IMG/VR virus record: IMGVR_UViG_3300036881_000016
Span: 2,891-66,890 of that record
Reading direction: 5' to 3' (one strand)
DNA length: 64,000 nt
DNA from: a virus
Every line of letters begins with the position of its first letter. Position 1 is the first letter of the stretch. Below, one piece after another: positions 4,155 through 58,742 of this stretch. The position numbers and the translations under genes are program-made. Under the pieces are notes generated by a model, which had not been told where the DNA came from, searched no databases, and saw only the letters and a program-made list of their open reading frames with translations.

Positions 4155-5732
4155 TTATGCCCTCCTCGTCTTAGTTCGTGCAGGAATCTTCTTCTTAGCC
4201 GGCGGTTTCTTAGCTGGTGCTGGTTGCGTCGTCGGTTTAGCAAGTGCCGGAGGCGGTGCTGCTGCGCGTGCCCCGGGTTCTGCCGCCGTTACGGTCCCAC
4301 CTGCGAGGTCAGCCGAAGTCTCGTTAGTTGTTGGGCCTTCGACCCACGCTGCCTGCTGTGGTGTGGCTGCTGCTGCTGCTGCCATCGCTTCTTTGATGTG
4401 GTCTGCAATCTCGTTGTTCGCAGTTGTGTCCACGTGTGGCAGTCCCGCCTCGTCGAGTATTGCATTCAAGAGGTCGTCGTTCGGGAAGATCGCTGCGCTC
4501 GCCTTAACGAGGTTCGCCATCAACTTGCCGAGGTCCGCAACTTCAGTCTTAGCGACGTTGCCGTGAACCAGTTTCGGGATGCCTGAAACTGCGCCGAAGT
4601 CGTTGTATTCGGCTAACTGCGTCATCGCCTGCTTGTTTATTGTTTCGCAGATAGCATCGCAGATTGATTCGATAAACATAACAAAGAAACTCGATTTATT
4701 GCTCGAGAGTGCGTAGGAACCTGGCCCTCCGGACGGGAGTAACATAAAGTCGGCCTGCAGTCCTCGAGCGATCTCTGCCTGATATCTCTGGATAGGCTGC
4801 AACGTTGGCAACCCTGTTCCACGAGTGGTTAGTTGCTGGCCGCCGGTGAGCCCTATTGAATACATCGGCACGCTGGTTGCTGGCCACACATCTGAAGGGA
4901 TAACAAAGTTAGCGTCTTCATTTCTGCGAACGTTGTCAGCAATGTCCTGATACTTCTTGAGTACTTTCGTATTCTTTTTAAGCCAGTTCTCGGACGGGAT
5001 TCGCACTTCTGGCAGTCCAGCGACGTTTCGCTCAATGCCGATCAGTTCAATGAGTTCCAGTTTGTGTTTCGCGTACCAAGCCATATAGACCCCGCGCCAC
5101 CAGCTCTCACCTTCGGGGTTGTTCTTTGTGCTGTTGTGGCGGAAGTGGATGCACTTCTCTATCGGGATCGTGATGTATTCAGATGCAGGGATGAGTACCT
5201 GTTGCGTGAACCCTGTGAGTTCCTGCGTCTTGAGATCAAAGTCCCAACGATAAACAGTTTCTTGTGGTCTGAATCCCCACTTCTTCCAGCCTATGTGGCC
5301 GTCAGGGCGCCGCATCCAAACCATCTCAAACAAGCCGAAGCCCATATCAGGATAGGTTAGGATCTCATTCAACTTCTCCTGCCAGGACATATCGAGTGAA
5401 TTGAAAATACAATCAGTAGCAAAGTCTGCGAAGGCCTTGTCGCCGCTAAGCGTTCCGGCAGGTTGTATGAAAAACTCGACCTGGTGAATGGCCATCTTCG
5501 TAGCGTTGCCGACAGCCGCAACCGTGGCGTCGGTCCCCATCATAGTCTTATAGGTGCGAAGCCGTTGCTTACGGTTCTGTAACTTAGGAAGCCACTCTTC
5601 TAAGATGAATCCGTACGCTTCTCTCAGTCCTGGCTTACCGATCTCAGCCATCGTAGCAGCAGGCCGTCCGGCTCCTGGTGCTCTCCGTTTCACAATCTTA
5701 GCCGGTTTCGCCTTAGTTTTAGTCGCTGCCAT
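4155..5732 (-). CDS. Portal protein (DUF935/Mu gp29-like)
   Basis: Directly downstream of TerL, 525 aa. Motifs 'GFGLFEMVW', 'IPIEKCIHFRH..NNPEGESWWR..Y.AW..K', 'GIERNVAGLP', 'GSYALS'. Confidence 0.88.
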   Translation of the reverse strand: MAATKTKAKPAKIVKRRAPGAGRPAATMAEIGKPGLREAYGFILEEWLPKLQNRKQRLRTYKTMMGTDATVAAVGNATKMAIHQVEFFIQPAGTLSGDKAFADFATDCIFNSLDMSWQEKLNEILTYPDMGFGLFEMVWMRRPDGHIGWKKWGFRPQETVYRWDFDLKTQELTGFTQQVLIPASEYITIPIEKCIHFRHNSTKNNPEGESWWRGVYMAWYAKHKLELIELIGIERNVAGLPEVRIPSENWLKKNTKVLKKYQDIADNVRRNEDANFVIPSDVWPATSVPMYSIGLTGGQQLTTRGTGLPTLQPIQRYQAEIARGLQADFMLLPSGGPGSYALSSNKSSFFVMFIESICDAICETINKQAMTQLAEYNDFGAVSGIPKLVHGNVAKTEVADLGKLMANLVKASAAIFPNDDLLNAILDEAGLPHVDTTANNEIADHIKEAMAAAAAATPQQAAWVEGPTTNETSADLAGGTVTAAEPGARAAAPPPALAKPTTQPAPAKKPPAKKKIPARTKTRRA

Positions 5733-5738
5733 TGTTAA

Positions 5739-9812: not shown

Positions 9813-10195
9813 TTGTTTTCACCTGATCCCCAACCAGTTCAAAATCACGACAACCATTATGATTGTCACCACTACATTAAGATACGATACTTCCATTTTA
9901 GTTCACCTATTGCTCTTTCTATAACTTCTATCGAGCGAAATAATGGGTCTAATGCTTCCACCAAATCGTCTCTAAGTGCTTCCAAGTCAGATTCAAACAT
10001 CTTCACGCCTCTGAATGTATTGCACCATCCACGCTACCACGTCTTCCATAGACTTACTCTTACCATCCACGGCCTGCAACATTCCACCTCGTTTCATCAT
10101 CCACGTATGATCCTCACTTGAAACGAAAATCTTCTTTCTATCTGCAACCCATTTCTTGTAATACGTTGACGCCGGAGTCTCGCCTTTCGGAGGGT

Positions 10196-10690
10196 TCATA
10201 CGTCCTTAACCTCATCCCCGAACACAATCGTCACGCTTCCAGTAACCTCAGTCTTCCTCTCCTTGTTAAGTTGGAAAATATCATTGAACGTATCCTGCGC
10301 CATCTTGTATCTCTCGCGTTTCTCACGAGCGCTTAGATTCAGTTCATCTTCATTATCCATCATATCCGAATATTTATCCAACTGTTTCTGAGCCCGCTTG
10401 ATTGCCTTCGCCTTGTATTTCTTGATAAGCTTCTCGTTCTGCGCGAGCTCCATCTTCATTATATGATCGTCATACGCTTCCGCCCGGCGAATCCAATCGT
10501 GTTTCTTGCCGTATGATCTTAATGTGGAGGGTTGAAGGTCAAACTCGACTCCTGAGTATTTCTTCTGGACAGCCGTATAGGTCCTTGTGGGGCCATAATC
10601 ACGGAAAAAACAAAATAATTCATACGCCTTCGTAGGTTCGTCATCTCGACGATCCCAAGGATCATTAAGCTCTTTAGACTCTTCTGTCAT
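10196..10690 (-). CDS. Terminase small subunit-like HTH protein
   Basis: First gene of the packaging operon; 'PWDRRDDEPTKAYELF..FRDYGPTRT..WIRRAEAYD' followed by a helical region and a beta C-terminus. Confidence 0.6.
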   Translation of the reverse strand: MTEESKELNDPWDRRDDEPTKAYELFCFFRDYGPTRTYTAVQKKYSGVEFDLQPSTLRSYGKKHDWIRRAEAYDDHIMKMELAQNEKLIKKYKAKAIKRAQKQLDKYSDMMDNEDELNLSAREKRERYKMAQDTFNDIFQLNKERKTEVTGSVTIVFGDEVKDV

Positions 10691-13315: not shown

Positions 13316-13762
13316 TTATTTATTATTCTTATGCGGACAATGTCCATATTGCCCTTTGGCTATGTTGCAGTTATAGCAAAGGACTTGATAGCCTAGAGGG
13401 AAGTTTTCTTTTTTCAAGCGGCGATATAGGTTTGTGCCGTGATCGTGCTTGTTGTTTGTTGGTCGAATGTGGTCTATCGTGAGAAAAGCGCGTTCTGATT
13501 CGCCACAACAAGCGCATTTAATCTGACCGTTTGAATAATGTGAGAATACCTCGTCTCTTAACTGTATAAGATATTCCCTAACTTTGAGTCGTGATTTGGC
13601 ATTTACTTTCTCACGATAAATGCGGTCATTAGCTCGGCGGAATCTTCGGCGCTCATTAATTCTTGCTTGGTTCTTCTTTTGCCAAGCTTTTGTGAGTGTT
13701 AATAAGTGTTCTTTGTGATCGAGACGGTATTGTCTCTGGTATTCTGAACGATCTTTAAGCAT
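13316..13762 (-). CDS. HNH endonuclease-like protein
   Basis: 'CACCGE..FLTIDHI..YQVLCYNCNIAKG' with a basic helical N-terminus. Confidence 0.8.
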   Translation of the reverse strand: MLKDRSEYQRQYRLDHKEHLLTLTKAWQKKNQARINERRRFRRANDRIYREKVNAKSRLKVREYLIQLRDEVFSHYSNGQIKCACCGESERAFLTIDHIRPTNNKHDHGTNLYRRLKKENFPLGYQVLCYNCNIAKGQYGHCPHKNNK

Positions 13763-14703: not shown

Positions 14704-15492
14704 ATGGCTAGGAGTATGCAAACAGCTACAATAAGCTTCGGGCTCGTAAATGTGCCTGTCAAGCTGTATAAGGCGGTCGAATCTCCGACCAGCATGCACA
14801 AGCATCATGCCATTGATGGCGGTCGAATCCGTCAAAAGCAATGGTGCGAGGTATGCAAAAAGGAAGTAACAAAAGACGAGGTAGTGAAAGGAACCGAAGT
14901 AAACGGTCAAGTCGTGACCGTGACCGAGGACGAGCTAAAAATGCTGCGTCCTGAAAAGTCGAGCGCAATAAAAATCGTGGAGTTTGTGCCACGATTTGAG
15001 ATTGATTCGCTTTACTTTGGAGCGCATTACTATCTTGGAGTTGACAAAAAGCAGCCGACTGAGCCCTTCTTTTTGCTTAGAAATGCGCTGCGAGAGTGCG
15101 GCAAAATCGCAATCGGAACATACACCAAGCGCGAAAAAGAATACGCTTGCGCGATTGAGCCTTACAAGTCAGGTTTGCTTTTGACTGACCTAAATTACCT
15201 TGAAGAGATAAGAGACATTGAAGAGATAGCGGTCAAAGAGCCGGAAGTCAACGATGAGGACTTGAAGCTCGCGCAAATGCTGATTAAGCAGCGTTCAGTT
15301 GACGAGTTAGATTTGAGCAAGTTCAAGGATTCGTTTAAAGCTGATCTTCAAGCATTAATCGCAACTAAAGCTGCTGGCGAGACTTTCAGCGTTGAATCCG
15401 AGCATTTAGAAGCTCCTAAGTCTACACTCAAAGAAGCACTTGAGGCGAGCCTGACTACTATAAACTGGCAAGCTGAGAAATCGGAGGCCTAA
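14704..15492 (+). CDS. ku: Prokaryotic Ku DNA end-binding protein
   Basis: 'RS....ISFGLVNVPVKLY.A..GRIRQK..C..KEV..DEVVKG.E..IVEFVP..EIDSLYF...YYL..LDLSKFKDSF' is the YkoV/Ku core. Confidence 0.95.
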   Translation: MARSMQTATISFGLVNVPVKLYKAVESPTSMHKHHAIDGGRIRQKQWCEVCKKEVTKDEVVKGTEVNGQVVTVTEDELKMLRPEKSSAIKIVEFVPRFEIDSLYFGAHYYLGVDKKQPTEPFFLLRNALRECGKIAIGTYTKREKEYACAIEPYKSGLLLTDLNYLEEIRDIEEIAVKEPEVNDEDLKLAQMLIKQRSVDELDLSKFKDSFKADLQALIATKAAGETFSVESEHLEAPKSTLKEALEASLTTINWQAEKSEA

Positions 15493-15771: not shown

Positions 15772-16266
15772 ATGAAAACAAACGAAGAGATATTCAAGGA
15801 GATCAAAGCCACTTTAAAGGGGCTTGATGATCTAGCCGCGTCGCTGACAATCGGCTCTATCAATGGGGGCCGTTTGTCAAACAAGCTTTGGGACGCAATT
15901 ATGGTAAATGAAATTTACCGAGAGAAAGCTGAAGCAAAGGGACTTCTAAAATTAGAAGTCAAGTTACCAAACGGTTTAGGCGTTTGTCACGATTGCGATA
16001 ATCCGCTTTGTGTGAATCCGAACCATTTGTTTCTCGGAACGCCTAAAGAAAATCACCATGACTCAGCTATTAAACGTCGGAGAGCCGACACGAACGCGGC
16101 TTTAAACGGTCGTGCGCGATTAACTTGGAGTGATGTTGAGAAGATTCGCGATCTGTATGAAACTGGAAAATATACTCAAAAGCAATTAGGTAATTGTTTC
16201 GGAGTTCCACAAACGCAGATAAGTAGAATCGTGCGAGGCGCGAGTTGGAGGGAATATTATGACTAA
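15772..16266 (+). CDS. Chimeric protein: unrelated N-terminus fused to a partial HNH and HTH tail
   Basis: 'VCHDCDNPLCVNPNHLFLGTPKEN' and 'ARLTWSDVEKIR..TQKQLG..FGV..ISRIVRG.SW'; the N-terminal CWxW part found in paralogues is missing. Confidence 0.7.
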   Translation: MKTNEEIFKEIKATLKGLDDLAASLTIGSINGGRLSNKLWDAIMVNEIYREKAEAKGLLKLEVKLPNGLGVCHDCDNPLCVNPNHLFLGTPKENHHDSAIKRRRADTNAALNGRARLTWSDVEKIRDLYETGKYTQKQLGNCFGVPQTQISRIVRGASWREYYD

Positions 16267-17656: not shown

Positions 17657-18141
17657 ATGTATATCAAGGAAGTTATTATCGACAGCAAGCTCTCAGATCG
17701 TTTTTGGACGAAAGTTCATAAAACTGATTGGTGTTGGGAGTGGACAGGAATTACAGATACACGCGGATACGGACGAATCAGGGTTCAGAGAAATAAAAAA
17801 CGCGAGGAATATTTAGCACATCGTGTTGCATATTCGCTAACTTATGGTGCAATACCTGCTGGAAAATATGTCTGTCACGATTGCGACAACCCCCGGTGCG
17901 TTAATCCACGTCATCTATTCATAACAACGGCTCAGGGTAACTCGATTGACCGGAACCGGAAAGGTCGCAATGTTGATAACTCCGGCGAGAATCACGGAAG
18001 AGCTAAACTTAATTGGCGACTTGTACTGAGATTCGCAAAGCACGTGAGATGGGATTAACGCAGCGTGCGCTATCGCGCATCTACGGCGTGACTCGCACTG
18101 CGACGCGATATGCAATAATGGAAAAAACTTGGAGGGAATGA
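17657..18141 (+). pseudogene. HNH homing endonuclease with a frameshift before the C-terminal HTH
   Basis: 'RFWTKV..CWEWTG..GYG..AHRVAY..VCHDCDNPRCVNPRHL'. The -1 frame from about 18025 encodes EIRKAREMGLTQRALSRIYGV...KTWRE*, matching the tails of the paralogues. Confidence 0.7.
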
Positions 18142-18369
18142 TGAGTCGCTTGTGTAATTGTCCTTATTCAAGGGAAGCAGTTAAGAATTGTCGGCGTGGC
18201 TACTGGAAGGATGGCGAGATGTTTTGTCTTTGCACAAAGGATTGCGCGAGGTGCTATGCTGACTCGAAGCGAATGGTTCCGATGCACGCCGACTTGAACG
18301 CTGAATACAAGGCGTCGATAGCAATTAAAACGAATCAAGCGAAAGAAAAAATGAAAGGTGAGGCTAATC

Positions 18370-19530
18370 ATGTTGGAGAAAATAAAGCGACTAGTTAAGG
18401 GTGAAATTTGGGACGAGTTAGTCTTCGAGCCTGAACGTGCTCCGAGAGTAGCTTACAGCAAGCCGGAAGTGATTGAGACGCCTCAGCAAACGGCGATTCG
18501 AGCGGCGATCCGAGAAATTGAACGGCTCGTGGGAACGTCATTAAACCGGCATGAGGCAATGGTATATCGCGAAGCTTATCGGCTGTTGATCGAAGGGCAA
18601 TTTCACGCCTATTGTTCTCATACCATCGGTGAATATCACGCCGGAGATTGTAACTTGCGTCAACTTTTGCTTCGCGGTGCGCTCCGAGCATCATTTTCAA
18701 GCAAGAGTGCGTTGCTTCACTTCGCGATGACTGGCGCTACGGGATCAGGAAAGAATGATCTCATTGAGAACATGGCGAAGATCCTGCCGGTAAAGAATGT
18801 GGTTATGTATTCAAGCATAACGCCACAGGTTCTTTATTACGAGATGCGCCTTCCGTTTCCCGGAGTGAAGAATGGATGGACGATGAACCCTGACCATTTC
18901 AAGAACTGCATAATCTGCATCACTGAGATCGCAGATTCAAAGGCTTTCACAGCATTGAAGGCGTTCGCTGAACTAAACGAGTTCAGTTCTTACACGCACA
19001 AGGCGACGAGTGGACAACGATCATTAGACCTTACGGTTCGTGGGCCGAGATCGGTATGGGTTTCGAGCGTGATGGGAATAAAGGATGACCAAGCGAACAG
19101 GCGGTTCATTCATAACGAGATGGATGAGCAAAACCTTGCGAGGCGTGAGGCTAGAGTGCAAACGATTACTGACAGTTTGCTCTCGCAAACAAATCTCGCT
19201 GATGATCCGCGAATGAGAATCTGCCGAGCGGGGTTTGATCTTCTATTCGCGAGCAATCCGAAATTTGAGCAACCAACGACTGACGTGGCAGCGGTGATCT
19301 CTGACCTGAACGTTCTGCTTGACCGGACTGACCATTCACCAAGCCAGTTCAAACAACTCTACGCTCTTATAGAGTGCGGAGCTGCGCTGAGACAATTCGA
19401 GCGAGGCTATTGCAGGATTGAGATGCAGGATGTTTGTGAGGGCTGGTTCCTGAGCGGCTTCGAGACAGAAAAAGAACTATTGCTAGGCGGTCAATGGGTT
19501 AAGCCCGTTGATCCGATGGATGGTTGTTAA
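18370..19530 (+). CDS. AAA+/P-loop ATPase, putative replicative helicase-like
   Basis: Walker A GATGSGKN, Walker B-like 'IICITE', 'SSITPQVLYY', Arg-finger-like 'DDQANRRF'; RBS AGGTGAGG. Confidence 0.65.
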   Translation: MLEKIKRLVKGEIWDELVFEPERAPRVAYSKPEVIETPQQTAIRAAIREIERLVGTSLNRHEAMVYREAYRLLIEGQFHAYCSHTIGEYHAGDCNLRQLLLRGALRASFSSKSALLHFAMTGATGSGKNDLIENMAKILPVKNVVMYSSITPQVLYYEMRLPFPGVKNGWTMNPDHFKNCIICITEIADSKAFTALKAFAELNEFSSYTHKATSGQRSLDLTVRGPRSVWVSSVMGIKDDQANRRFIHNEMDEQNLARREARVQTITDSLLSQTNLADDPRMRICRAGFDLLFASNPKFEQPTTDVAAVISDLNVLLDRTDHSPSQFKQLYALIECGAALRQFERGYCRIEMQDVCEGWFLSGFETEKELLLGGQWVKPVDPMDGC

Positions 19531-21693: not shown

Positions 21694-22318
21694 GAAGCAC
21701 CTCAATGCTTACCTAAGCATCTACCGGCGACAGAGGCGGGAAGGAAACGTTACGCTGTGTGAGAATGACTGCTTTGCTTTAGCGGCGGCCTGCAAAGCTG
21801 GCAACCTTAAAGAAGTGCAGGCTATTCTTGAAACAACTGGCGTGATGGATGCCGAAAAGATGGCGTTCTATGATCGCAAGGTCAACGAAACGGTGCGCCT
21901 TGAGCGTCACCTAGTCTGGCTCGTAAATGATATTGCCAACATGATTGCGAAGGATGCAGACGCAGGGATGAGTGTCAAAGTCAAAGGAGTTGGTGTTCTA
22001 AAAGTTGAAGAGTGGACGAGCTACATCGAGACTCGTAAGTTCCTTGTGTATGGCGATCCGAAGGATGATCCGGACCTGGAACCGACAGATCACCGATTCA
22101 AAGGTGCGGCTTTCGGGTTCGATGTGATGCCGGGGGATCGTTTCTTCTGGCACGGTCAACTTGGAGAACAAGGCGTTGCCGCAACAAGGAATAACTATCT
22201 CTCGTTTTCGCTGCATATTCCAGAGATTGTTACTGCATTTGCAGGTAAGCAGGATGAGATTATAAATAAATTGTTGAGATCGTTTACGGAGTTGAGGCAT
22301 TTGGTCGGCTCTACCTGA
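21635..22318 (+). CDS. Hypothetical protein
   Basis: 227-aa co-oriented ORF at the end of the first plus-strand gene run. Confidence 0.6.
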   Translation: MEYMPSKNPEVLKRWQRRNKKHLNAYLSIYRRQRREGNVTLCENDCFALAAACKAGNLKEVQAILETTGVMDAEKMAFYDRKVNETVRLERHLVWLVNDIANMIAKDADAGMSVKVKGVGVLKVEEWTSYIETRKFLVYGDPKDDPDLEPTDHRFKGAAFGFDVMPGDRFFWHGQLGEQGVAATRNNYLSFSLHIPEIVTAFAGKQDEIINKLLRSFTELRHLVGST

Positions 22319-22456
22319 TTCGTCGTTCAGTTTGACACAATCAGGCCAGTGAATTAGCCGGCATGTGTTAGTCGCATGCGACTATGATCGACAAGGTGAA
22401 TCCGAGGCCGTGACGGGCTTATCTACCAAACAAAACTGTTCTTTTGTTGCATGCGA

Positions 22457-22783
22457 TTACCGTCTGAAGATTCTTTTCCACCAGGGAGTCATGATCTTCT
22501 CAGCTGCCGGAAGTAACTTTATTGTAGCCAATGCGTATTCACCTCGGAGCTCCTCGAGCATTGAACGCAACTCTTGAAGTTCTTGATCCTTCGCTGCAAG
22601 CAGTTCAGCTTTGTGAATATTGTCGATCCGAAGTTGTTCAGTCTCTTGTGTTTGTGGTGAGTAGTATTTCTCAAGAGCGAGCTGAACGATGTTGCCTCTT
22701 GGGATGCTTTCGCCTTGTGATTGATCTTCCAGCTTCTCGGCCAGTTCATCCGAGACTTCGATCCGAAGTTTGTTTAAAGGCAT
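22457..22783 (-). CDS. Ribbon-helix-helix + coiled coil + C-terminal amphipathic helix protein
   Basis: 'KLRIEVSDELAEKLE..IPRGNIVQLALEKYY' (RHH-like), heptad coiled coil, C-terminus 'PWWKRIFRR'. Confidence 0.7.
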   Translation of the reverse strand: MPLNKLRIEVSDELAEKLEDQSQGESIPRGNIVQLALEKYYSPQTQETEQLRIDNIHKAELLAAKDQELQELRSMLEELRGEYALATIKLLPAAEKIMTPWWKRIFRR

Positions 22784-22812
22784 AGAGGATGATTGGAAGC
22801 ATAGGTCAAAAC

Positions 22813-22828
22813 GTTTCCTACGGGAAAC
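22813..22828. promoter_or_regulatory. 16-bp palindrome GTTTCCTACGGGAAAC (copy 2)
   Basis: Intergenic, about 30 nt upstream of the RHH gene. Confidence 0.75.
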
Positions 22829-23077
22829 CGTATTTAAAGAATATGTGTCGTAACATATTCTTTATAAATGAATCCGTAACTCACAAATATGTGTCATGCT
22901 TCCGAAGATAGCACCGGAAAAAGATAGTTTATTTATTATCGGAAAAATTCTCCCGTTGAGCATGTTCTTACTTTATATAAATACCTTACGAAATATGGTG
23001 AGAATCGGCGAAACATTAGCATGGTTCGAGCATGTTGTGTTTCGGAGGTTAACACAGGAACCATAGTTTGAGATTCA

Positions 23078-23085
23078 TTTATATA
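23078..23085 (+). promoter_or_regulatory. TATA box TTTATATA
   Basis: 22 nt upstream of ATG 23108, which has no RBS. Confidence 0.5.
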
Positions 23086-23107
23086 TGATCTGTGACGAGT
23101 ATAGACT

Positions 23108-23509
23108 ATGGCAGATATGTTTAGATTCATCGCTGATGATGACAAATCTTTTTGGAAACGTATCAGCTCAAGAGTCGATGGCTGTCGGACTCCTCATTGC
23201 TGGGAGTTAAAGGATGAGGAAGACGGACAAATATATCTTGATCGAAAGCGCGTCGATACAGCGACGGGAGGTAAGCGAGGTCGATATGTACAGATCCGAC
23301 GCCTTCTATTTCTTGTAAGCTGGGGTGTCATATTACCGGGACGCAAGATAACTATGCGCTGCGGGAATACCAAGTGCGTTAACCCAGCTCATGCAAGAAT
23401 GAAAGGTGTTCCAGCAGAATACGGTCAGATTCAGATGCTCATAAACTCAAAGTATCTGACAGAAGATCAAGCGAAAATGTGGTATGTTGAGGCAAGGGAG
23501 GAACAGTGA
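23108..23509 (+). CDS. Degenerate HNH-fold protein
   Basis: 'FWKRI..CWEL..MRCGNTKCVNPAH'; the His usually found before the first Cys of the HNH motif is absent. Confidence 0.6.
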   Translation: MADMFRFIADDDKSFWKRISSRVDGCRTPHCWELKDEEDGQIYLDRKRVDTATGGKRGRYVQIRRLLFLVSWGVILPGRKITMRCGNTKCVNPAHARMKGVPAEYGQIQMLINSKYLTEDQAKMWYVEAREEQ

Positions 23510-23698
23510 ACGACACCGAACTTTTGGATCGAGTTGTCGAGATATTTGGAAGGACAGAATTTCGTGGCTTTGATGGCTTGACGGCTCAAAGCGCAGAAGT
23601 AGCAATTTAGCATACCCTTATAAGCAACCACTTCACATAGGTTTACTTGTATCTTCGTAGTAAGAAGATATTTAAATGTAGCAGGAAGTGTGCTGTGT

Positions 23699-24778
23699 AT
23701 GGTAGTTGCTGAAGTTGAAGCACCAATTAGTCTAGCCAAGGAGCATTTGCCCCTCAGGGTAGAACGTAAGTTGGTCAGGCCGAATCAATTCAATCCTCGA
23801 ACAAAGTATGACCGCGAGGACTTAACGGACCTGATGCCGAACATTGCAGCAAACGGCGTGAAAGACCCGTTGCTGGTTCGCCCGATCCCAAAAGACGAAG
23901 AGGGCCATATCTATGAAGTTGTAGACGGAGATCGTCGGCTGCGTGCCGCGACAGAGCTAAAGATCGCTAAGTTTGACGTATGGGTGAAGCGTATGTCAGA
24001 CGTCGAAGTGATGAAAGAGGGCACGATCTTTAACTTCTTTAGACGAAACATCGGTCCCGTCGAAGTAGGCCGAGCGCTTTCAACATTATATAAGGCGCCG
24101 GAATATGAGATGATGTCGCTCACGAAGTTTGCGCACACTATGGGATTCTCAAAAGGTGACGCCTCACGTTTGATGGCACTCCCAGACGGCTTGTCGATGG
24201 AGATTCAAGAGAAGGTTGCACCTCAAGGCAAGACACGCCGAATCCCTGAAGGCAGCATTGATGGCCGCACCGCGTATTACTTTACGCGAATCCCGAAAGG
24301 TGAGCGCCAGGTAGAAGTCGCCGACGCTGTAGCGGCTGTGCCGAAGCTGCGGGGAGATAGGGTAGGTAAGGTCGTCGAAGAAGCAAAGCAGCATCCGGAG
24401 GAGCCTGCAACCGAGATAATCGAGAAGCTTCTTAAAAGAGATGAGCACACCGGCGGTCCGACCCTCACGATGTCGCTTGAGGACTATCAGAAGATCGAGC
24501 AAGGCAAGAAGTCTACAGTCGTGGTGCGCGGTTCAGCTGTGCAGCCTGGCGTCAGACCGGAAGCGGAAGTAACACCGCTCGTCAGGGGCAAGCCTCTGAA
24601 GGTGATGGAGACATACCGGCGCAATCTCTCAAAGTTTAAGGATCGAGATGCAGAGCGCGATGGCTACAAGAACCTTGAAGAGTTCAAAGCGAAGTGGACT
24701 GAGCGATATGGGGAATGGCCCGAAGATGAATCAGTCTCAATAATTCAGTTCTACAGCGCTGACCAGTTAAAACATTAG
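23699..24778 (+). CDS. parB: ParB/Spo0J-family protein with HTH and a C-terminal ASCH-like domain
   Basis: 'PNQFNPR..NGVKDPLLVRP..YEVVDGDRRLRAA' (ParB CTPase motif); HTH 'SLTKFAHTMGFSKGDASRLMAL'; C-terminal 'KIEQGKKSTVVVR..DAERDGYKNLEEFKAKW..Y..VSIIQF' is ASCH-like. Confidence 0.85.
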   Translation: MVVAEVEAPISLAKEHLPLRVERKLVRPNQFNPRTKYDREDLTDLMPNIAANGVKDPLLVRPIPKDEEGHIYEVVDGDRRLRAATELKIAKFDVWVKRMSDVEVMKEGTIFNFFRRNIGPVEVGRALSTLYKAPEYEMMSLTKFAHTMGFSKGDASRLMALPDGLSMEIQEKVAPQGKTRRIPEGSIDGRTAYYFTRIPKGERQVEVADAVAAVPKLRGDRVGKVVEEAKQHPEEPATEIIEKLLKRDEHTGGPTLTMSLEDYQKIEQGKKSTVVVRGSAVQPGVRPEAEVTPLVRGKPLKVMETYRRNLSKFKDRDAERDGYKNLEEFKAKWTERYGEWPEDESVSIIQFYSADQLKH

Positions 24779-24780
24779 TG

Positions 24781-24815
24781 GGTAGGAACACTCGTTCCTA
24801 CCATCTTATTTTCTT
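24781..24815 (+). terminator. Hairpin plus pyrimidine tract after parB
   Basis: GGTAGGAAC-ACTC-GTTCCTACC followed by ATCTTATTTTCTT. Confidence 0.55.
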
Positions 24816-24861
24816 ACCTCTACCGAAAAGTTCTTATTAAGAACATCTAATTAGTAAGCGC

Positions 24862-24877
24862 GTTTCCGAGAGGAAAT
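24862..24877. promoter_or_regulatory. Palindrome GTTTCCGAGAGGAAAT (copy 3)
   Basis: Intergenic, just downstream of parB. Confidence 0.6.
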
Positions 24878-25171
24878 GTATTGAGGGAGGGGCACAGTGA
24901 TACACAGTCTTGTCTTGATGATATCGTCTTTAAGTAGCACACAGCTCGACCAGTTAACGGTAGCGCTTAGAAAGATGGGGGGCCGTGACGAAGAACACCC
25001 ATTAGCAAAGCCGGTGCCGACGGATGACGAAGGCGACCTAGGGCCAGTGATTGATGAAGTGGACGCGCTTATCCAAACCGGCGCGGAAGAGCATCGACGT
25101 TTATGGAGCGCACTAGAACGACTAGAAGGCAAACTTGATGCGTTGGAAGTTAATCGCGAGGTGTTTTAGAT

Positions 25172-25187
25172 GTTTCCCGTAGGAAAC
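25172..25187. promoter_or_regulatory. Palindrome GTTTCCCGTAGGAAAC (copy 4)
   Basis: Exact reverse complement of copy 2; extends to TGTTTCC..GGAAACA. Confidence 0.7.
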
Positions 25188-25278
25188 ACCGAGGAGGTGG
25201 ATCACGTCCGAGATCAGGCGCCAGCGGTCTCAGTATCGTCGGCGATGGGAGAACAGTAACAGCATTAGTCTTGACGCA

Positions 25279-25485
25279 TTGGATGAGCAAATCATCCAGT
25301 GTATTTTTAAAAACCCCGGTATTAGTATCGCGGGGATGTGGCGCCGCTTATCAAAGAGCATGGAGCCGCCACGTATCTATGTCATTCATTATCGCGTTAA
25401 GACTCTTGAAGCTGCTGGAATTTTAGTAACGGCACGAATAGCGAACGAGCGTAGATGCCGTCTCGCGCAAGGAGGGAAGAGGTGA
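25279..25485 (+). CDS. Winged-helix DNA-binding protein
   Basis: 'DEQIIQCI.KNPGISI..IHYRVKTLEAAGILV'. Confidence 0.6.
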   Translation: MDEQIIQCIFKNPGISIAGMWRRLSKSMEPPRIYVIHYRVKTLEAAGILVTARIANERRCRLAQGGKR

Positions 25486-25747: not shown

Positions 25748-26077
25748 GTGAAAGCGGATGAACTTCTCCTTGCTTCCATAGCCGTTCCGAATCCGAAGTG
25801 GGAGAAGCTGAGGCGCAAACACCTGAAAGAACATAACCGATGCGCGGCCTGCGACACACGAAGGAACCTCGAGGCCCATCACATCCGACCAACGCAATGG
25901 TATAAGGAGCTGACACTTGATCCGAGCAATCTAATCACGCTCTGCACGAAGCCGGCGAATCACCATTTGAGTGAAGGTCACTTGATGGACTTCAAAAGCT
26001 ACAACGAAAACGTGGTTGCTGACTGCGCCTGGATGCTGAAACGCCAGAAGCACCGACCGATATGGAGGCGATTTTGA
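25748..26077 (+). CDS. HNH endonuclease
   Basis: 'WEKLRRKHL..CAACD..LEAHHI..LDPSNLITLC..HH'. Confidence 0.85.
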   Translation: MKADELLLASIAVPNPKWEKLRRKHLKEHNRCAACDTRRNLEAHHIRPTQWYKELTLDPSNLITLCTKPANHHLSEGHLMDFKSYNENVVADCAWMLKRQKHRPIWRRF

Positions 26078-29216: not shown

Positions 29217-29705
29217 GGATACCGAGAAGAGAAGAGTGCAAAAGCTAGACTGAGATATCACGAGAATCACGATCTTTGCTTACAAATAGCCAAAAAGGAT
29301 TACGTAGCGCACCAAGCGGAGAGACAAGCAAAGACTAGACAATACCGAAAGGAACATCCGGAAAAAGTTTGCGCGGCAGTAAGAAACTGGTTCAAAGCAA
29401 ACCCACAGAAACGAGTCTTATACGAACAGATTCGTCGCACTCGCAAACGAGGAACCGGAGGTTCATATACCATCGGTGAATTGAATGATTTATTCGCTCA
29501 GCAAGAAGGCTTTTGTGCCTATTGTGGTGAGTTGTTATACGGACGGTTTGACTCCGAGGTTCACGTAGAACACAGAACCCCTGTCTCGAAAGGAGGCAGT
29601 AGTAATATAGAAAACATTGCTCTGACTTGTGCTAAATGCAATTTGACTAAGGGTACTCTAACCGATGAGGAGTTTATTTTAAAACTTGGAGGCCGCCGTG
29701 TATGA
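29217..29705 (+). pseudogene. HNH endonuclease paralogous to 31381-31923, lacking an in-frame canonical start for its N-terminal part
   Basis: The frame is open from about 29217 (..WFKANPQKRV..RRTRKRGTGGSYT..ELNDLFAQQEGFCAYCG..HVEHRTP.SKGGS..NI.L.C..CN..KG). The nearest upstream ATG (29149) is in another frame. Confidence 0.6.
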
Positions 29706-30307: not shown

Positions 30308-30790
30308 ATGGCCAAGCTTACAAAGTTCCAAAGAGAAGAGATACAACGGAAGTATCGAGAGCATGAAAAGAATCAGCCGGCGCTTGGACGCGAGTATGGC
30401 GTTTCCCAGAAGACAATCAGTCGGATAGTTAATGGCCAGGTGCTTAAAGGTCTCCGGCGCAAGCTCGATGCTGTTGATAAGTGGATACTCCGATGTATCA
30501 AACAGAGCGAAGGGCTGTCAATGATGGATGTCTACCGCTGTGTTAATCTTGAAGCAGAGGGAAATGTGCTTGGCATAGTCTGTAATGAGCAGTTCATACG
30601 GTATCGGATCAACTCACTGGAAGCAATGGGCCATATCTACACCGTTCGGGTGAAGGGTAAACCCGCTGTTAGAAGGGTATATCTACAGGAACAAAAGAAG
30701 TTTGAAGCGTTGACGGCGGTGATTCATGATGGGAGCGATCCAACCATTAGAGCCAAGACTTTTCTCACAGATCGAAGTAAGCGGCCATAG
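30308..30790 (+). CDS. HTH + winged-helix transcription regulator
   Basis: 'NQPALGREYGVSQKTISRIVNG', then 'LDAVDKWIL..IRYRINSLEAMGHI', which resembles 25279-25485. Confidence 0.7.
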   Translation: MAKLTKFQREEIQRKYREHEKNQPALGREYGVSQKTISRIVNGQVLKGLRRKLDAVDKWILRCIKQSEGLSMMDVYRCVNLEAEGNVLGIVCNEQFIRYRINSLEAMGHIYTVRVKGKPAVRRVYLQEQKKFEALTAVIHDGSDPTIRAKTFLTDRSKRP

Positions 30791-31214
30791 GGGGTCTTGC
30801 TGGCTTTGGAACGGCGTTAAGGATGACCATGGCTACGGAAAAATGAGCCGGAATGGCCACGAGGAACGGGTGCATCGAATTATGTATAAGCTAGTTAACG
30901 GTGAGATTCCGAACGGCTTGTTTGTTTTGCATCGCTGCGATACGCCGGCTTGCGTGAATCCGGATCATCTATTTGTGGGAACACAAAAAGATAACATGCA
31001 GGATTGCATCAAGAAGGGCCGCTTCAATGCCAAAGGCCCGACCGCCGAACAAAGCGGAACCGCAAAGCTAACCCAAAGAGAAGTGAACCACATCCGGTTC
31101 TTCTATGATATGGGCGCAACTCAAACAGAAATAGCGGAAGAATACGAAGTGTCAATCTCTACGATTTCTTTAATAGTAAGAGAACGCACTTGGAAGCACT
31201 CGTTGGTAGAGTGA
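30726..31214 (+). CDS. HNH homing endonuclease with HTH tail
   Basis: 'CWLWNG..GYG..VHR..VLHRCDTPACVNPDHLFVGTQKDNMQD'. Confidence 0.9.
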   Translation: MMGAIQPLEPRLFSQIEVSGHRGSCWLWNGVKDDHGYGKMSRNGHEERVHRIMYKLVNGEIPNGLFVLHRCDTPACVNPDHLFVGTQKDNMQDCIKKGRFNAKGPTAEQSGTAKLTQREVNHIRFFYDMGATQTEIAEEYEVSISTISLIVRERTWKHSLVE

Positions 31215-31311: not shown

Positions 31312-31327
31312 ATTTCCTACGGGAAAC
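31312..31327. promoter_or_regulatory. Palindrome ATTTCCTACGGGAAAC (copy 5)
   Basis: Lies between two HNH genes. Confidence 0.65.
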
Positions 31328-31380: not shown

Positions 31381-31923
31381 ATGCCAGCGCATTCGTCTGC
31401 GGAATATCTGCAAAAGTGGCGTGCTGATAACTGTCAGCATGTCAAAGACTACGCCTTGAAGTGGCGTTTAACGAACAAAGAGTATGTAAAATCATATATG
31501 CAGAAGTATCGAGCAGAGAACAAGCAGAAAATCGCTGAGCAAGAAAAACAATACCGCCAGCAAAACCATGCACGTTACCAGCAATGGTGGCGAGAATGGG
31601 ACAAGGCGAACCCAGAAAAAGTGAGAGTGAAACACCATAAGCGCCGAGCGCGATTATTAGGGAACGGCGGTGCATTTACTGCCGATGAATTGAGTGAGAG
31701 ATTTGAAGCACAGGAAGGAAGGTGTTACTATTGCGGGCGGTTACTTTACGCCTCGTTCGATCGAGACATCCACGTAGATCATAAAACACCCCTCGCAAGA
31801 GGTGGTTCGAACGAGATAAGCAACATCGCACTTGCATGCTCAGCCTGCAATTTCTCTAAAGGCGCTAAAACCGAAGAAGAGTATTTGAAATATGAAGAAT
31901 CAAGAAGAATTTGTTCCATCTGA
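31381..31923 (+). CDS. HNH endonuclease
   Basis: 'CYYCG..HVDHKTPLARGGSNEISNIALACSACNFSKG'. Confidence 0.9.
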   Translation: MPAHSSAEYLQKWRADNCQHVKDYALKWRLTNKEYVKSYMQKYRAENKQKIAEQEKQYRQQNHARYQQWWREWDKANPEKVRVKHHKRRARLLGNGGAFTADELSERFEAQEGRCYYCGRLLYASFDRDIHVDHKTPLARGGSNEISNIALACSACNFSKGAKTEEEYLKYEESRRICSI

Positions 31924-33190: not shown

Positions 33191-34432
33191 ATGGGAGTCA
33201 GTTTAGACTATAGTGTCTCAGTAACGGCAGGAAGCATCGGGGAAGTCCCGCAATACATTAAGGACTGGCACATAAATACCGTCGAGTTGGTTTCAACCGG
33301 CGGGGCAGGTAACAATTACGCGAGTCAGCTCGCGTATCTCAAGGGTCTTGGAGTCAAGCCGGTGCTCGATATCGAGATGGATATCTGGGCAGGCGGTCAG
33401 ATTCAATCGCCTATTGGCAACTTTACGAGCTTCCTGCAATCCTGCAAGGCGGCAGGCTGGCCGACACTCAGCTCAGAAGGTGGCAGAGCCGGTGATCCGA
33501 GCTTCATTAAGGGGCTAGGACTCGGCTACATCAACTACAACTGCGACCAGTGTGGCTTGTGGCAGAACATCTATTCCGATGTTGGAACCGTGATGAATCT
33601 CTGGGAGTGTTACTATCCTTCCGAGGTTGGTTACATCACGCAGGGCGCAAACGCTACTAAAGGCAAAGCGAACGGCGTTCTAGCCGGTGCTTGGCGTGAC
33701 GCAGCGGAACATTCAAAATGCTACTTCTCGAAAGACGCGCCGAATTACGCAAATGCGCCGAACAAGAAATTCAAAGGCGACAACGATATCCTTCAGAACA
33801 GCATCAACGGAGCGCAACCTAGCTACGAGTCAATAATTGATTCGCTCATAGCATTAGGATGCTCAGTAACGCGGTTCGACGTTTGGGGTGGAACAGCGTC
33901 AAGCAGAGCGCAGAATCAGGCCTGCGGCTTCGATTCAATAGTCGCTAACTTGCAGAAGAACCACCCACCTAACGGCATTGGACCTGCGCCACCCCCTCCG
34001 GTAACAAAGAAAATGTTTGCATCGGTTCCAGTGAGCTGTTCTATGGTTCCTGGTCGCATCGACGAGTTTGTTAAAGGGACCGATAGCACACTGTGGCACA
34101 ACTATCCAGCGATAGGCGCGGCTAACTGGCAGTCGCTAGGCGGCGTTCTTACGTCGGCACCTGCTTGCATCACGCGGGCCGGCAAGATCATAGACGTCGT
34201 TGCACGCGGTTCAAACGGTGGCTGTTACCTGAAGGAATGGAACGGCACTCAATGGCTCGACTGGAAAGACCTTGGCGGCGTTGTAGCTGCAAATACTCCA
34301 TTAGGGATCATTGCAGTGAACGACAACAGCCTAAACGTCTATGTTATCGGGAGCGACGGCAATGTATGGGTCAAGTCAATGGTGAATGCTGTGTGGAGTA
34401 ATTGGAAGAGGGACGCAACCGTAATGGGGTGA
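33191..34432 (+). CDS. Putative glycoside-hydrolase-like domain + Pro linker + PLL-type beta-propeller lectin repeats
   Basis: C-terminal 'WQSLGGVLTSAPA..DVVARGSNG..W..W.DLGG' repeats; the N-terminal alpha/beta domain is paralogous to 45373-46065 and to an insert in 48095-51790. Confidence 0.6.
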   Translation: MGVSLDYSVSVTAGSIGEVPQYIKDWHINTVELVSTGGAGNNYASQLAYLKGLGVKPVLDIEMDIWAGGQIQSPIGNFTSFLQSCKAAGWPTLSSEGGRAGDPSFIKGLGLGYINYNCDQCGLWQNIYSDVGTVMNLWECYYPSEVGYITQGANATKGKANGVLAGAWRDAAEHSKCYFSKDAPNYANAPNKKFKGDNDILQNSINGAQPSYESIIDSLIALGCSVTRFDVWGGTASSRAQNQACGFDSIVANLQKNHPPNGIGPAPPPPVTKKMFASVPVSCSMVPGRIDEFVKGTDSTLWHNYPAIGAANWQSLGGVLTSAPACITRAGKIIDVVARGSNGGCYLKEWNGTQWLDWKDLGGVVAANTPLGIIAVNDNSLNVYVIGSDGNVWVKSMVNAVWSNWKRDATVMG

Positions 34433-35839: not shown

Positions 35840-36103
35840 ATGGCGATGGATGATGTTAGGAATTTGCTCAGAGAATCGGGCCGTGGCATGACCTTAGAAG
35901 AGCTGGCCCACGCTACTGGCTTAGCTAAAGGAACGGTCCAGCGCAACGTCGCCGATCTCTGGAAAAAACATGAAATTTCGCGGATGTATAAGTTCAATGA
36001 GCTTAACATCCGCTACGTTTATTACTTCTACGGCTCGAACTTAGTGGGCGACAATCAGATGAGGGGTGCATGGCCAAAACAGAAGGTTGCGATAAAAAGG
36101 TAG
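35840..36103 (+). CDS. Winged-helix protein
   Basis: '[25 protein letters not shown]'. Confidence 0.75.
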
Positions 36104-36528
36104 ATACGCCTTGCGAGAACTTTAAGGGTTACATCATGCCCAACGGTTATGGCTACCAGCATGATCCGGTGCGATACGAACGTGGCGAGAAAAACTTGGT
36201 TTACGCGCACCGCTTGGCATACGAACGGCACTTCGGACCGATACCAAAAGGGGTGTGTGTTTGCCACCGTTGCGATAACCGCGCTTGTATCCGTCCAGAT
36301 CATCTTTTTCTAGGAACGCATAAAGACAACACTCAGGATGCGGTCAAAAAAGGCCGCATGCCACGAGGCGAGCAAAGCGTCCTTGCGAAACTCACGATGG
36401 CGCAAATTGGCGAGATTCGGAAGCGCTACAAGAAATGGGTTGTCGGGACGCCCCAACTCGCTAAGGAGTATAGGGTAAGCAAAGCCACAATATTACGTAT
36501 TATCCATAACGAGCGATATAGGGGCTGA
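36070..36528 (+). CDS. HNH homing endonuclease with HTH tail
   Basis: '[38 protein letters not shown]'. Confidence 0.9.
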
Positions 36529-37523: not shown

Positions 37524-38735
37524 ATGATAACTAAAACTAAGAAAGGTCACGGCCTGGGGTGGAAGCCCCAATTAAAAGATCACCGTGATTATAGATACGA
37601 AGATCACGTGAGACTAATGATGGCTGAAGCGTTACAGCCTACAGACCTAACTAACTTGGTCAGCACAGTCAAGAATCAAGGCCAATTAGGTGCGTGCGTT
37701 GCTCACGGAACCACGTCAGGATTTGAAGCGTGTCAGATGAAGGCAAAGTTAGCACCCGTGTTAGGCTGCAGGCTGCTTGTCTATCGTGATGCGAGGATCA
37801 TAGGCGGTGACTTCCCTGGCGACAATGGGTGTAATATCAGAGATGGTATCCACGCGACTGTTCAGGACGGCGTGGCACCTGAAACTGATTGGGCTTACAA
37901 TATAAGCCAGTTTGATGACACTCCACCAGCGAAAGCGGTCGCGGATGCGGTGAAATCTGAGACCGTGAGCTACTATTTGCTTGATGGCTCGAGCACCACG
38001 CAGATGATTGCGAACATAGACAACTGCCTCTGTGTGACAGGCCTTCCGGTGGTTTACGGAATGCCAGTCTACCAACAATACGAAGACGTAGGCAGCGACG
38101 GAATCATTGAGATGCCGTCAGGGGCGTCAATCGGTGGTCACTGCAATGCACTCTGCGGCGTCACTGGATTCACCGCCAGCGACTATTACATCACCCTAAA
38201 TTCGTGGGGGACAGGTTGGGGCAAAGGATACGGCAAGTTCAGTGGGGGATTCGGCTTGATCCCTAGACCGTATATCCAGAACTATGCAAGTGACAGTTGG
38301 GTAATTGCTACGGAGAGTCAGATCAATCCGACTCCTCCTCCGGTGACGCACGTAACTGCAAATTCATCGCCAATGCTTATGGCAAGTGGTGATCGGTTTG
38401 TAACGGGTTCAGACAAAGCAGTGTGGCAACAGCACGCAGCTGCATGGAAGTCCCTCGGCGGGGTAGTTCTCGGTGCGCCAGCATCATGCACAGACGGCAC
38501 CAATGTTGACGTCTTTGCAGTTGGAAGCAACGGGGCTATCTGGTGGAAGCGCAATGCGAATGCGTGGGTATCCCTTGGTGGCACAGCTCTTGTAGGCTCA
38601 GTCCCAAGCGCAGCATACGTCAACGGCGTGTTGACTGTTGATGTTGAAGGCACAAACCACACGATATACGAAAAGAAGTATGTCAGCGGTGTGTGGACAA
38701 CCGCGTGGGCCGCAGTAGCATTGAACTTGAACTAA
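37524..38735 (+). CDS. Papain-family (C1A) cysteine peptidase with C-terminal PLL-type lectin repeats
   Basis: Catalytic motifs 'NQGQLGACVAH', 'GGHC', 'NSWG'; xylellain-like N-terminus 'GLGWKP..DHRD'; PTPPPVT linker; 'WKSLGG..APA..DVFAVGSNGAIW'. Confidence 0.9.
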   Translation: MITKTKKGHGLGWKPQLKDHRDYRYEDHVRLMMAEALQPTDLTNLVSTVKNQGQLGACVAHGTTSGFEACQMKAKLAPVLGCRLLVYRDARIIGGDFPGDNGCNIRDGIHATVQDGVAPETDWAYNISQFDDTPPAKAVADAVKSETVSYYLLDGSSTTQMIANIDNCLCVTGLPVVYGMPVYQQYEDVGSDGIIEMPSGASIGGHCNALCGVTGFTASDYYITLNSWGTGWGKGYGKFSGGFGLIPRPYIQNYASDSWVIATESQINPTPPPVTHVTANSSPMLMASGDRFVTGSDKAVWQQHAAAWKSLGGVVLGAPASCTDGTNVDVFAVGSNGAIWWKRNANAWVSLGGTALVGSVPSAAYVNGVLTVDVEGTNHTIYEKKYVSGVWTTAWAAVALNLN

Positions 38736-58726: not shown

Positions 58727-58742
58727 GTTTCCTTTAGGAAAC
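58727..58742. promoter_or_regulatory. Palindrome GTTTCCTTTAGGAAAC (copy 6)
   Basis: In the 55-bp gap upstream of the tail tube gene; followed by GGG, as in copy 1. Confidence 0.7.

Follow-up and report, generated by a model that had tools for sequence, protein, structure and literature searches.

The 64,000-nucleotide window analyzed here (bases 2891–66890 of the 66,890-bp virus record IMGVR_UViG_3300036881_000016) covers most of the genome of an uncultured, siphovirus-like tailed virus from peat, and it carries a gene cassette built around an orphan ParB protein. The cassette is richer than first described: it pairs an ASCH-tailed ParB with a ribbon-helix-helix (RHH)/coiled-coil protein and a predicted nuclease-dead HNH protein, and it is a variant of the ParB/parS theme in what is probably an archaeal virus. 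The genes are a real, conserved unit, and relatives keep palindromes after parB that have other sequences than those of the window. The reading that we favor, with slightly less than even confidence, is that of an orphan ParB/parS-type cassette of a non-integrating tailed virus that serves in the regulation or marking of the viral genome, with maintenance as a possible second role.

Overall organization of the cassette

Three genes make up the cassette:
22457–22783, minus strand: RHH (CopG-like) protein of 108 residues, with a probable RHH domain, a long helix, and the C-terminal motif GEYALAT.KLLPAAEK.MTPWWKRIFRR
23108–23509, plus strand: degenerate HNH_3-like (His-Me finger) protein of 133 residues, phrog_1872 (5.2e-11)
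23699–24778, plus strand: orphan ParB, with a ParB-CTPase N-domain (GDRR), a Noc/ParB-type HTH domain (about residues 99–235), and an ASCH fold (about residues 253–355)

The RHH and ParB genes and the palindromes described in the original prediction, which was made from the sequence of the window, are all present, and the observation is confirmed. The gene at 23108–23509, between the RHH and ParB genes, had been overlooked and is conserved. The prediction had portrayed a divergent island that interrupts the early arm of the genome; the RHH gene does lie on the opposite strand, whereas the ParB gene is co-directional with the early arm.

Architecture of the ParB-HTH-ASCH protein

The ParB-HTH-ASCH protein is composed of a canonical-type ParB N-domain and a DNA-binding domain, with the dimerization domain replaced by an ASCH fold. 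Its open reading frame (ORF) has an alternative GTG start at 23690. The protein matches Pfam ParB_N (PF02195) with 59.2 bits (cutoff 26.3) and TIGR00180 with 81.5 (cutoff 58.45), and phmmer aligns residues 22–185 to Caulobacter ParB and Noc chains. The GxRRxxA motif that had been noted earlier is present as GDRRLRAA, of which GDRR is invariant in all 12 family members, as are R61 and P62 of Box I. The HTH claimed alongside it is borne out by superposition of the modeled residues 99–235 on the DNA-binding domains of Noc and ParB (Z 10.2, rmsd 2.7, 115 residues aligned), Noc being the best match; the TIGR04285 Noc model scores 65 bits, below its cutoff of 315, and no KorB Pfam domain was found in the protein.

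The C-terminal ASCH assignment, also part of the original prediction, likewise comes from superposition. Modeled residues 253–355 overlay on the ASCH proteins YqfB (Z 12.1, rmsd 2.2 Å, 95 of 101 residues aligned), PH0355 (Z 10.7), and a Lactobacillus ASCH protein (Z 9.7), with sequence identities of 9–16%. The Pfam ASCH model (PF04266) gives no match to the protein at E ≤ 0.1; in the Atlas cluster closest to it, 86% of members carry PF04266. The ParB_C dimerization domain (PF23552) has no match in the protein, and the ASCH fold stands in its place. A canonical CTP clamp, as had been proposed, is not upheld, since the protein is without the C-terminal dimerization domain that such a clamp needs. 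The ParA-binding motif [LIF]G[KR]G[LIF], a pattern taken from the available text of PMC12704722 (bioRxiv 10.1101/2025.10.10.680097), occurs in none of the 12 ParBs.

The RHH protein and its conserved C-terminal peptide

As first described, the RHH protein has a coiled coil and ends in PWWKRIFRR. A profile of its 12-member family matches the whole 45-residue CopG repressor over residues 4–44 (E 0.0076), and the AlphaFold2 model consists of helices at residues 12–21 and 29–40 followed by a single helix spanning residues 43–107 (pLDDT 80–96). No Pfam family is matched at E ≤ 0.1, there is no MerR match, and a Foldseek search with the monomer model returns no match at E ≤ 0.001.

The suggested likeness of the C-terminal tail to that of TubY stands: the tail is an aromatic, basic amphipathic segment, with the highest hydrophobic moment of the protein (0.90) and a charge of +4 in 11 of the 12 homologues. 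It also resembles the membrane-targeting ends of MinD. Its moment is equaled by 404 of 5,000 shuffles of the tail residues (8%), so the composition of the tail matters more than the order, and two of the 12 tails are far less amphipathic. Among distant homologues, the first 42 residues share 7–14% ungapped identity (an underestimate owing to indels), and the 18 residues ending in LLPAAE are 72–83% identical and are followed by PWW(K/T)R. Conservation of the C-terminal peptide alongside divergence of the DNA-binding domain suggests that the peptide has a conserved partner, and the motif is predicted to be a docking or membrane-binding peptide.

The degenerate HNH-like protein

Homologues of the HNH-like protein lie directly upstream of ParB in 16 of the 27 related loci. 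They belong to a small family of 11 proteins, none of which has a Pfam domain; for the protein of the window, HNH_3 gives no match and zf-His_Me_endon scores 15.1 bits, below 27. In all eight cassette homologues the general-base His and the His of the CHxCDN stretch are replaced and the zinc-binding stretch C...C.NP.H is kept. Three of the four aligned HNH_3 genes of the window have both His residues, the gene at 15772–16263 being without the general-base His. Judged by these residues, the protein is probably a nuclease-dead zinc-finger DNA binder. That it is one of the stray homing endonucleases of the window is ruled out by its conserved place before ParB and by the lost His residues.

A six-copy palindrome in the virus record

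The 16-bp palindrome GTTTCC-N4-GGAAAC occurs in the window at the following positions, which have no strand:
22813–22828: between the RHH gene and a TATA-like box, 30 nt ahead of the start codon of the gene
24862–24877: copy GTTTCCGAGAGGAAAT, with one mismatch, 84 nt after the ParB stop codon
25172–25187: copy GTTTCCCGTAGGAAAC, 394 nt after the ParB stop codon
8300–8315: 6 nt upstream of the large-terminase start codon (8294, minus strand)
31312–31327: one mismatch, between two HNH endonuclease genes
58727–58742: 24 nt upstream of the tail-tube start (58703, minus strand)

The three palindromes pointed out originally are thus copies of one 16-bp motif, at 22813, 24862, and 25172, and three more lie elsewhere. 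Six copies at one mismatch or fewer compare with 0.11 expected, and none of 100 shuffles reaches six. In the record as a whole the motif ranks first among palindrome families, and the 2,890 nt that precede the window hold no further copy. All six copies are intergenic (P about 6e-5 given 19.6% non-coding sequence, with the gene list incomplete). Their stems are invariant and their loops vary. These palindromes are the predicted recognition sites of ParB.

Conserved synteny and changing sites in relatives

The ParB protein has 11 full-length homologues (38–80% identity) in a set of 5.8 billion proteins, and a profile search of 1.84 billion representatives yields 26 proteins at E ≤ 1e-30, of which about 15 are full-length ParB-HTH-ASCH proteins. 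The 27 related loci were drawn from metagenome and virus scans. A single-protein ParB search of viral contigs found no relative. Genome contigs from representative genomes of 185,579 species contain no full-length relative and one 30%-identical match to the N-domain, in a bacterial metagenome-assembled genome. None of 30 records in a phage collection and none of 274 in a plasmid collection cover 80% or more of ParB.

The co-occurrence of the genes extends to distant loci: the RHH gene is divergently upstream of ParB in five distinct relatives whose ParB proteins are only 37–42% identical to that of the window. It holds this position in every locus with an HNH-like gene and enough upstream sequence (the L001/L008/L019 contig, L012/L013, L018, and, as partial copies, L020 and L022). 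The 5.6-kb contig of L009 also has the RHH gene, with an Orc1/Cdc6 gene (1632–2780; Cdc6_lid 5e-18) in place of the HNH-like gene before ParB; this contig may be a plasmid or a different virus that uses the same cassette. In the sequence available for L002 and L004, ParB stands without RHH and HNH-like genes. L013 encodes a second, different ParB_N protein at 4949–6037 (362 residues, PF02195 7e-17), 0.6 kb downstream of the cassette ParB.

The exact palindrome of the window is found in none of 28 loci; palindromes of other sequence occur in its place. Of 15 loci examined, 9 have a palindrome no more than 50 nt from the ParB stop codon, usually as a pair 105–220 nt apart, and the types seen after parB are TTAACC, TTGACCGCGGTCAA, and GGCGCC-TAAC-GGCGCC. 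In the first 150 nt downstream of parB, exact palindromes are 7-fold overrepresented: these segments hold 8 in 2,100 nt, compared with 34 in 63,917 nt (Poisson 2e-5). L012, a duplicate of L013, was left out of this count. The recognition helix of the HTH differs among the GTTTCC, TTAACC, and TTGACC groups. Palindromes analogous to the copy at 22813 occupy the same relative place in L001 and L013.

The arrangement is also seen in G001, the 53-kb, 93%-complete record behind L001. Its top palindrome family, TTAACC-N2-GGTTAA, has five copies with no more than one mismatch, compared with a mean of 0.15 and a maximum of 2 in shuffles. Two lie just beyond parB and the small ORF that follows it, the RHH leader has a degenerate copy, and another abuts a terminase ATPase fragment. 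The continuous, loop-free 14-mers of several relatives, together with the invariant stems and variable loops of the window, make duplex DNA sites more likely than RNA hairpins.

The divergent promoter region

Between and around the RHH and ParB genes, further elements were located:
22369–22384, no strand: perfect 16-bp palindrome TAGTCGCATGCGACTA, with a degenerate copy 75 nt away at 22444–22459 that overlaps the RHH stop codon
22835–22864, no strand: inverted repeat TAAAGAATATGT-N6-ACATATTCTTTA, unique in the window, overlapping TATA-like boxes at 22832–22839 and 22861–22868
23078–23085, plus strand: TATA-like box TTTATATA, which precedes the ATG of the HNH-like gene (23108) by about 27 nt
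23650–23676, no strand: imperfect palindrome TATCTTCGTA-G-TAAGAAGATA (23650–23670) with an abutting TATA-like box (23669–23676), 27 nt ahead of the ParB ATG

Three clades, represented by the window, L001, and L013, have a TATA-like box some 80 nt ahead of the RHH start codon, with clade-specific inverted repeats on its flanks. Half-sites of these repeats are found again in front of a second TATA-like box, which precedes the HNH-like ATG by about 27 nt. In the window the AATATG/CATATT half-sites are at 22840, 22854, 22886, and 22992. The inverted repeat at 22835–22864 is a candidate RHH operator, and TTTATATA is a candidate promoter of a leaderless HNH-like/ParB transcript. Sigma-70-like sites number zero in 22200–25400, compared with 4.0 ± 1.9 in shuffles. 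The divergent layout would suit an RHH repressor acting on archaeal-type promoters. The palindrome TAGTCGCATGCGACTA, which is unrelated to the six-copy motif, has two matches at three mismatches or fewer (0.15 expected; none of 100 shuffles reaches two), and the pair may mark the 3′ end of converging genes.

Downstream of ParB, two more features were noted:
24781–24802, plus strand: hairpin resembling a terminator, immediately behind the ParB stop codon, with a T-rich tail after it
24897–25169, plus strand: 90-residue ORF with a Shine-Dalgarno-like motif, flanked by two palindrome copies

The 90-residue ORF has no family match and was not found in distant relatives.

Searches for a partition motor or an integrase

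The statement that the window has no ParA Walker ATPase and no integrase holds, and holds for the entire record. ParA families (PF13614 AAA_31 and PF01656 CbiA) give no match at E ≤ 1 in the 66,890 bp, with controls positive in 14 of 14 genomes, and no integrase was found in a search across the same sequence. Tubulin (PF00091) has no match in this record or in G001, its control being positive in 13 of 14 genomes. G001 is also without an integrase and without ParA (no PF01656 match), and neither record has an Orc1/Cdc6 gene. The search for StbA/ParM is uninformative, as its control matched none of the 14 genomes. The record is 99% complete by CheckV, and no terminal repeats were found at its ends.

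Comparison with known systems

The cassette has parallels in several known systems. In the KorB-KorA system of plasmid RK2, in the accounts available of it, a ParB-family protein is accompanied by a small dimeric DNA-binding partner, and palindromic sites head several operons across the replicon, with gene silencing, not only segregation, as the outcome; the cassette would share these features. The DNA-binding domain of KorB superposes on ParB residues 103–231 (Z 6.3). The ParA partner of KorB is IncC. KorB, unlike the ParB of the window, has its own C-terminal dimerization domain, and KorA is an HTH protein whereas the partner here is an RHH/coiled-coil protein, in a host that is probably archaeal.

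Noc is an orphan ParB paralogue without ParA that binds scattered palindromes of the 16-bp class and links DNA to the membrane through an amphipathic helix. The cassette is similar in having a ParB without ParA and scattered 16-bp palindromes. In Noc the amphipathic helix is N-terminal and in the same protein, whereas the candidate helix of the window is on the separate RHH protein, and Noc retains the ParB C-terminal domain where the window ParB has an ASCH fold.

The RHH protein shares with TubY, of the type III TubZRC systems, the order of a DNA-binding domain, a coiled coil, and a basic amphipathic C-terminal tail. In the TubY accounts available, the tail binds membranes and DNA, and TubY binds upstream of the partition operon. 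TubY is there a MerR-type HTH tetramer with a lysine cluster that acts with TubZ and TubR; the protein here is a CopG-like RHH protein, its proposed partner is ParB, and there is no tubulin.

Similar to ParABS/SopABC systems and to N15, the window has palindromic sites after parB and elsewhere in a phage genome, in an element without an integrase. The IR centromere sites of N15 lie near late genes. For this phage-plasmid, the available description gives four separate IR centromere sites. Unlike ParABS/SopABC, the window is without ParA/SopA, without the ParA-binding motif (0 of 12 ParBs), and without ParB_C.

Proteins with the same domain architecture as the window ParB are catalogued in PMC12704722, as fusions of a ParB-CTPase fold to ASCH/DUF3850 (PUA-like) domains. 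In its available text the ASCH fusions are archaea-enriched, orphan ParBs are common on mobile elements, and no function, binding sites, or partners are given for the ASCH fusions; DUF3850 fusions are placed beside parA, which is absent from the window. To this recently catalogued class the cassette adds a member together with its probable DNA sites, a probable regulator, and a conserved third partner, a testable system in which the nucleotide switch, the specificity for sites, and the part played by the ASCH domain are open to direct assay.

A possible further parallel is the Par protein of staphylococcal pSK1, a single-protein partition system of an HTH and a coiled coil that stabilizes its replicon without an NTPase. 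Par is an HTH rather than an RHH protein, is without ParB, and is bacterial; Atlas DUF536 clusters, which score 0.88–0.89, hint at the likeness.

Proposed role of the cassette

In the role that we favor, the cassette would comprise three proteins and two kinds of DNA site. ParB dimers would bind the palindromes via the HTH, after which the NTP-gated ParB N-domain would spread or clamp on neighboring DNA. The RHH protein would bind the clade-specific repeats at the TATA-like boxes and thereby control its own expression and that of the HNH-like/ParB operon. Chiefly, the cassette would silence or time the operons headed by a site (those of RHH, terminase, and tail tube), much as KorB does with KorA, and a possible second output would be genome maintenance, as in the phage-plasmid N15. 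KorB/KorA-like silencing agrees with the presence of one site in the RHH leader and of others heading the terminase and tail-tube genes, and the pair of sites after parB in an integrase-less genome fits an N15-like centromere; silencing and maintenance are not mutually exclusive. If the cassette silences operons, the clamp-plus-lock principle of KorB/KorA would extend to viruses, probably of archaea. If its role is maintenance of a non-integrating viral genome, the cassette would illustrate how tailed viruses of uncultured peat microbes persist with neither an integrase nor a partition motor.

Several observations weigh against this assignment. In the third nucleotide-binding box (ENxxR), the E is missing in all 12 family members and the N in three of them, the R being kept, so NTP use may differ or be lost; more distant ParB-ASCH relatives retain ENxQR. 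The N-domain is poorly modeled (pLDDT below 50 at residues 1–98) from only 12 sequences, and its identity therefore rests on sequence. Clamp closure by a ParB without ParB_C is uncertain, as a closed clamp would need a second dimer interface, perhaps the ASCH domain. The preferred nucleotide is not predictable, since ParB folds bind CTP, ATP, or GTP (available text of PMC12704722). The RHH or the HNH-like protein, and not ParB, could be the one that recognizes the palindromes, and the HNH-like gene is not beside ParB in L002, L004, and L009. No clear palindrome lies within 700 nt of parB in L002, L011, L012, and L013. L005 and L010, which have the GGCGCC palindrome after parB, have the same recognition helix as the TTAACC-type L009, so the GGCGCC element may belong to something else. 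The terminase-adjacent palindrome also fits a role in packaging.

Alternative explanations

A motor-less partition system, in which ParB on the palindromes is coupled to the RHH protein and the amphipathic basic tail of the latter binds the membrane, is the strongest alternative, and we regard it as unlikely. The episome would be segregated passively, through a Noc-like DNA-membrane link split over two proteins. Two near-complete genomes without an integrase or a recognized partition NTPase, a palindrome pair directly after parB as in plasmid centromeres, and the recurrence of the virus in peat metagenomes from 17 studies (2018–2025) agree with such a system, as do the top hydrophobic moment and +4 charge of the RHH tail in 11 of 12 homologues, the motif that is 72–83% identical despite diverged RHH domains, and the precedent of TubY, which in the accounts available joins a DNA-binding domain, a coiled coil, and a membrane-binding tail. 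The amphipathicity itself argues less clearly, in that 404 of 5,000 shuffles reach the moment of the tail and two of 12 tails are much less amphipathic. Passive segregation does not require sites at late-gene heads, there is no sign of lysogeny or a carrier state, with the ParB family in none of the representative genomes of 185,579 species, and contigs from RNA libraries fall on late genes too and form no lysogen-like pattern. As a prediction, the membrane tether is plausible. A more specific form of it is somewhat less probable again: in a two-protein tether of an archaeal virus, ParB-ASCH would load at the palindromes, the LLPAAE...PWWKR peptide of the RHH protein would capture ParB-ASCH, and the amphipathic end would insert in the membrane, such that an integrase-less episome would be inherited without ParA, ParM, or TubZ and late operons would be silenced as well.

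An accessory role in packaging or replication, with ParB-HTH-ASCH marking pac-like or origin sites for the terminase or the replisome and the RHH protein only regulating the operon, is improbable. The palindrome 6 nt before the terminase gene, the one abutting the terminase fragment in G001, and the Orc1/Cdc6 gene between RHH and ParB in L009 speak for it. Most palindrome copies, however, are away from packaging or replication genes, the cassette is 14 kb from the terminase, Orc1/Cdc6 is absent from the record of the window and from G001, and no precedent was found for a canonical-type ParB in packaging.

Similarly low is the probability that the ASCH domain is the acting part, as a reader of or enzyme on modified nucleic acid that the ParB part targets to DNA or RNA, in the way that phage ParBs activate DNA-modifying dioxygenases. 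Residues 253–355 are matched best in structure by the ac4C amidohydrolase YqfB (Z 12.1); fusions of ParB to ASCH and to DUF3850 are recurrent in archaea and phages in the available text of PMC12704722, the Atlas cluster has 121 members, and a ParB is described, in the account available, as activating a phage thymine dioxygenase. At 9–16% identity to ASCH proteins, a shared fold does not equate to a shared activity, and no modification enzyme was recognized in the cassette or the window.

That there is no functional unit, but mere synteny in one virus lineage with palindromes that are RNA hairpins or terminators, is very improbable: the relatives, all from similar metagenomes, may form a single lineage, and a 6-bp stem with a 4-nt loop could fold in RNA, yet stems are invariant while loops vary, the palindromes of relatives are continuous, loop-free 14-bp elements, the sites change along with the cassette across clades, and the synteny survives ParB divergence to 37–42% identity.

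Host and environment

An archaeal host is likely. An Orc1/Cdc6 gene in L009 and the assignment of the ASCH fusion to an archaea-enriched class, in the available text of PMC12704722, point to archaea, whereas the nearest relatives of the structural genes, at about 30% identity, are bacterial phages; the best portal matches, about 28–31% identical, are from Arthrobacter phages and a fecal phage. Neither a host genome nor a provirus was found in the representative genomes searched. The extrachromosomal provirus of the original prediction is not supported, in that nothing indicates a provirus or episomal state.

Of the peat metagenome rows in which the sequence recurs, six may represent the source sample. 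Three metatranscriptome runs yielded short contigs on the RHH gene (22507–22709, no differences), on 22967–23172, and on the terminase region; none was seen on 23676–24999. Contigs from RNA libraries show presence only, with DNA carry-over possible, and those on the RHH and late genes allow no conclusion about life-style. One metatranscriptome contig (run X20) joins across 301 nt at 9898–10200 with 12 other letters between, which suggests a strain variant without the 9898–10200 segment.

Other genes of the virus

The minus strand encodes a large terminase split by an intein, a Mu-type portal, and tail genes (tube, tape measure, Dit-like, and Gp37-like), and a plus-strand arm from about 11 to 39.5 kb holds small genes, a Ku homologue, and numerous HNH endonucleases. 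In the large terminase gene (5739–8294, minus strand), Hint and LAGLIDADG homing-endonuclease domains lie between the terminase parts. In G001 the terminase ATPase part stops at a separate HNH_3 gene, with a palindrome of the ParB type between the two. At least eight free-standing HNH-family endonuclease genes were located in the 64-kb window:
13316–13762
15772–16266
17657–18058
25748–26077
29481–29705
30726–31214
31381–31923
36070–36528

The gene at 30726–31214 also has a sigma-70 region-4-like HTH domain, which a separate ORF at 30308–30790 matches more weakly. A 390-residue protein (18358–19530) has no similarity to the Orc1/Cdc6 protein of L009 and no PDB or NCBIfam match. The Ku70/80-like DNA-end-binding protein (14704–15492, plus strand; Pfam Ku 2.9e-40, phrog_4873 6.9e-54) hints at end-joining of a linear genome. 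In the early arm, a 413-residue protein (33191–34432, plus strand) with no Pfam match resembles Photorhabdus PLL/PHL β-propeller lectins over residues of about 273–407 (E 9e-36). A 683-residue protein (2100–4151, minus strand) joins a uracil-DNA-glycosylase (UDG)-superfamily domain to an XkdF-like prohead protease, and a UDG-domain protein is also present in G001. A papain-family cysteine protease domain is encoded at 37524–38735 (plus strand) and a BspA-type leucine-rich-repeat protein at 61989–63374 (minus strand).

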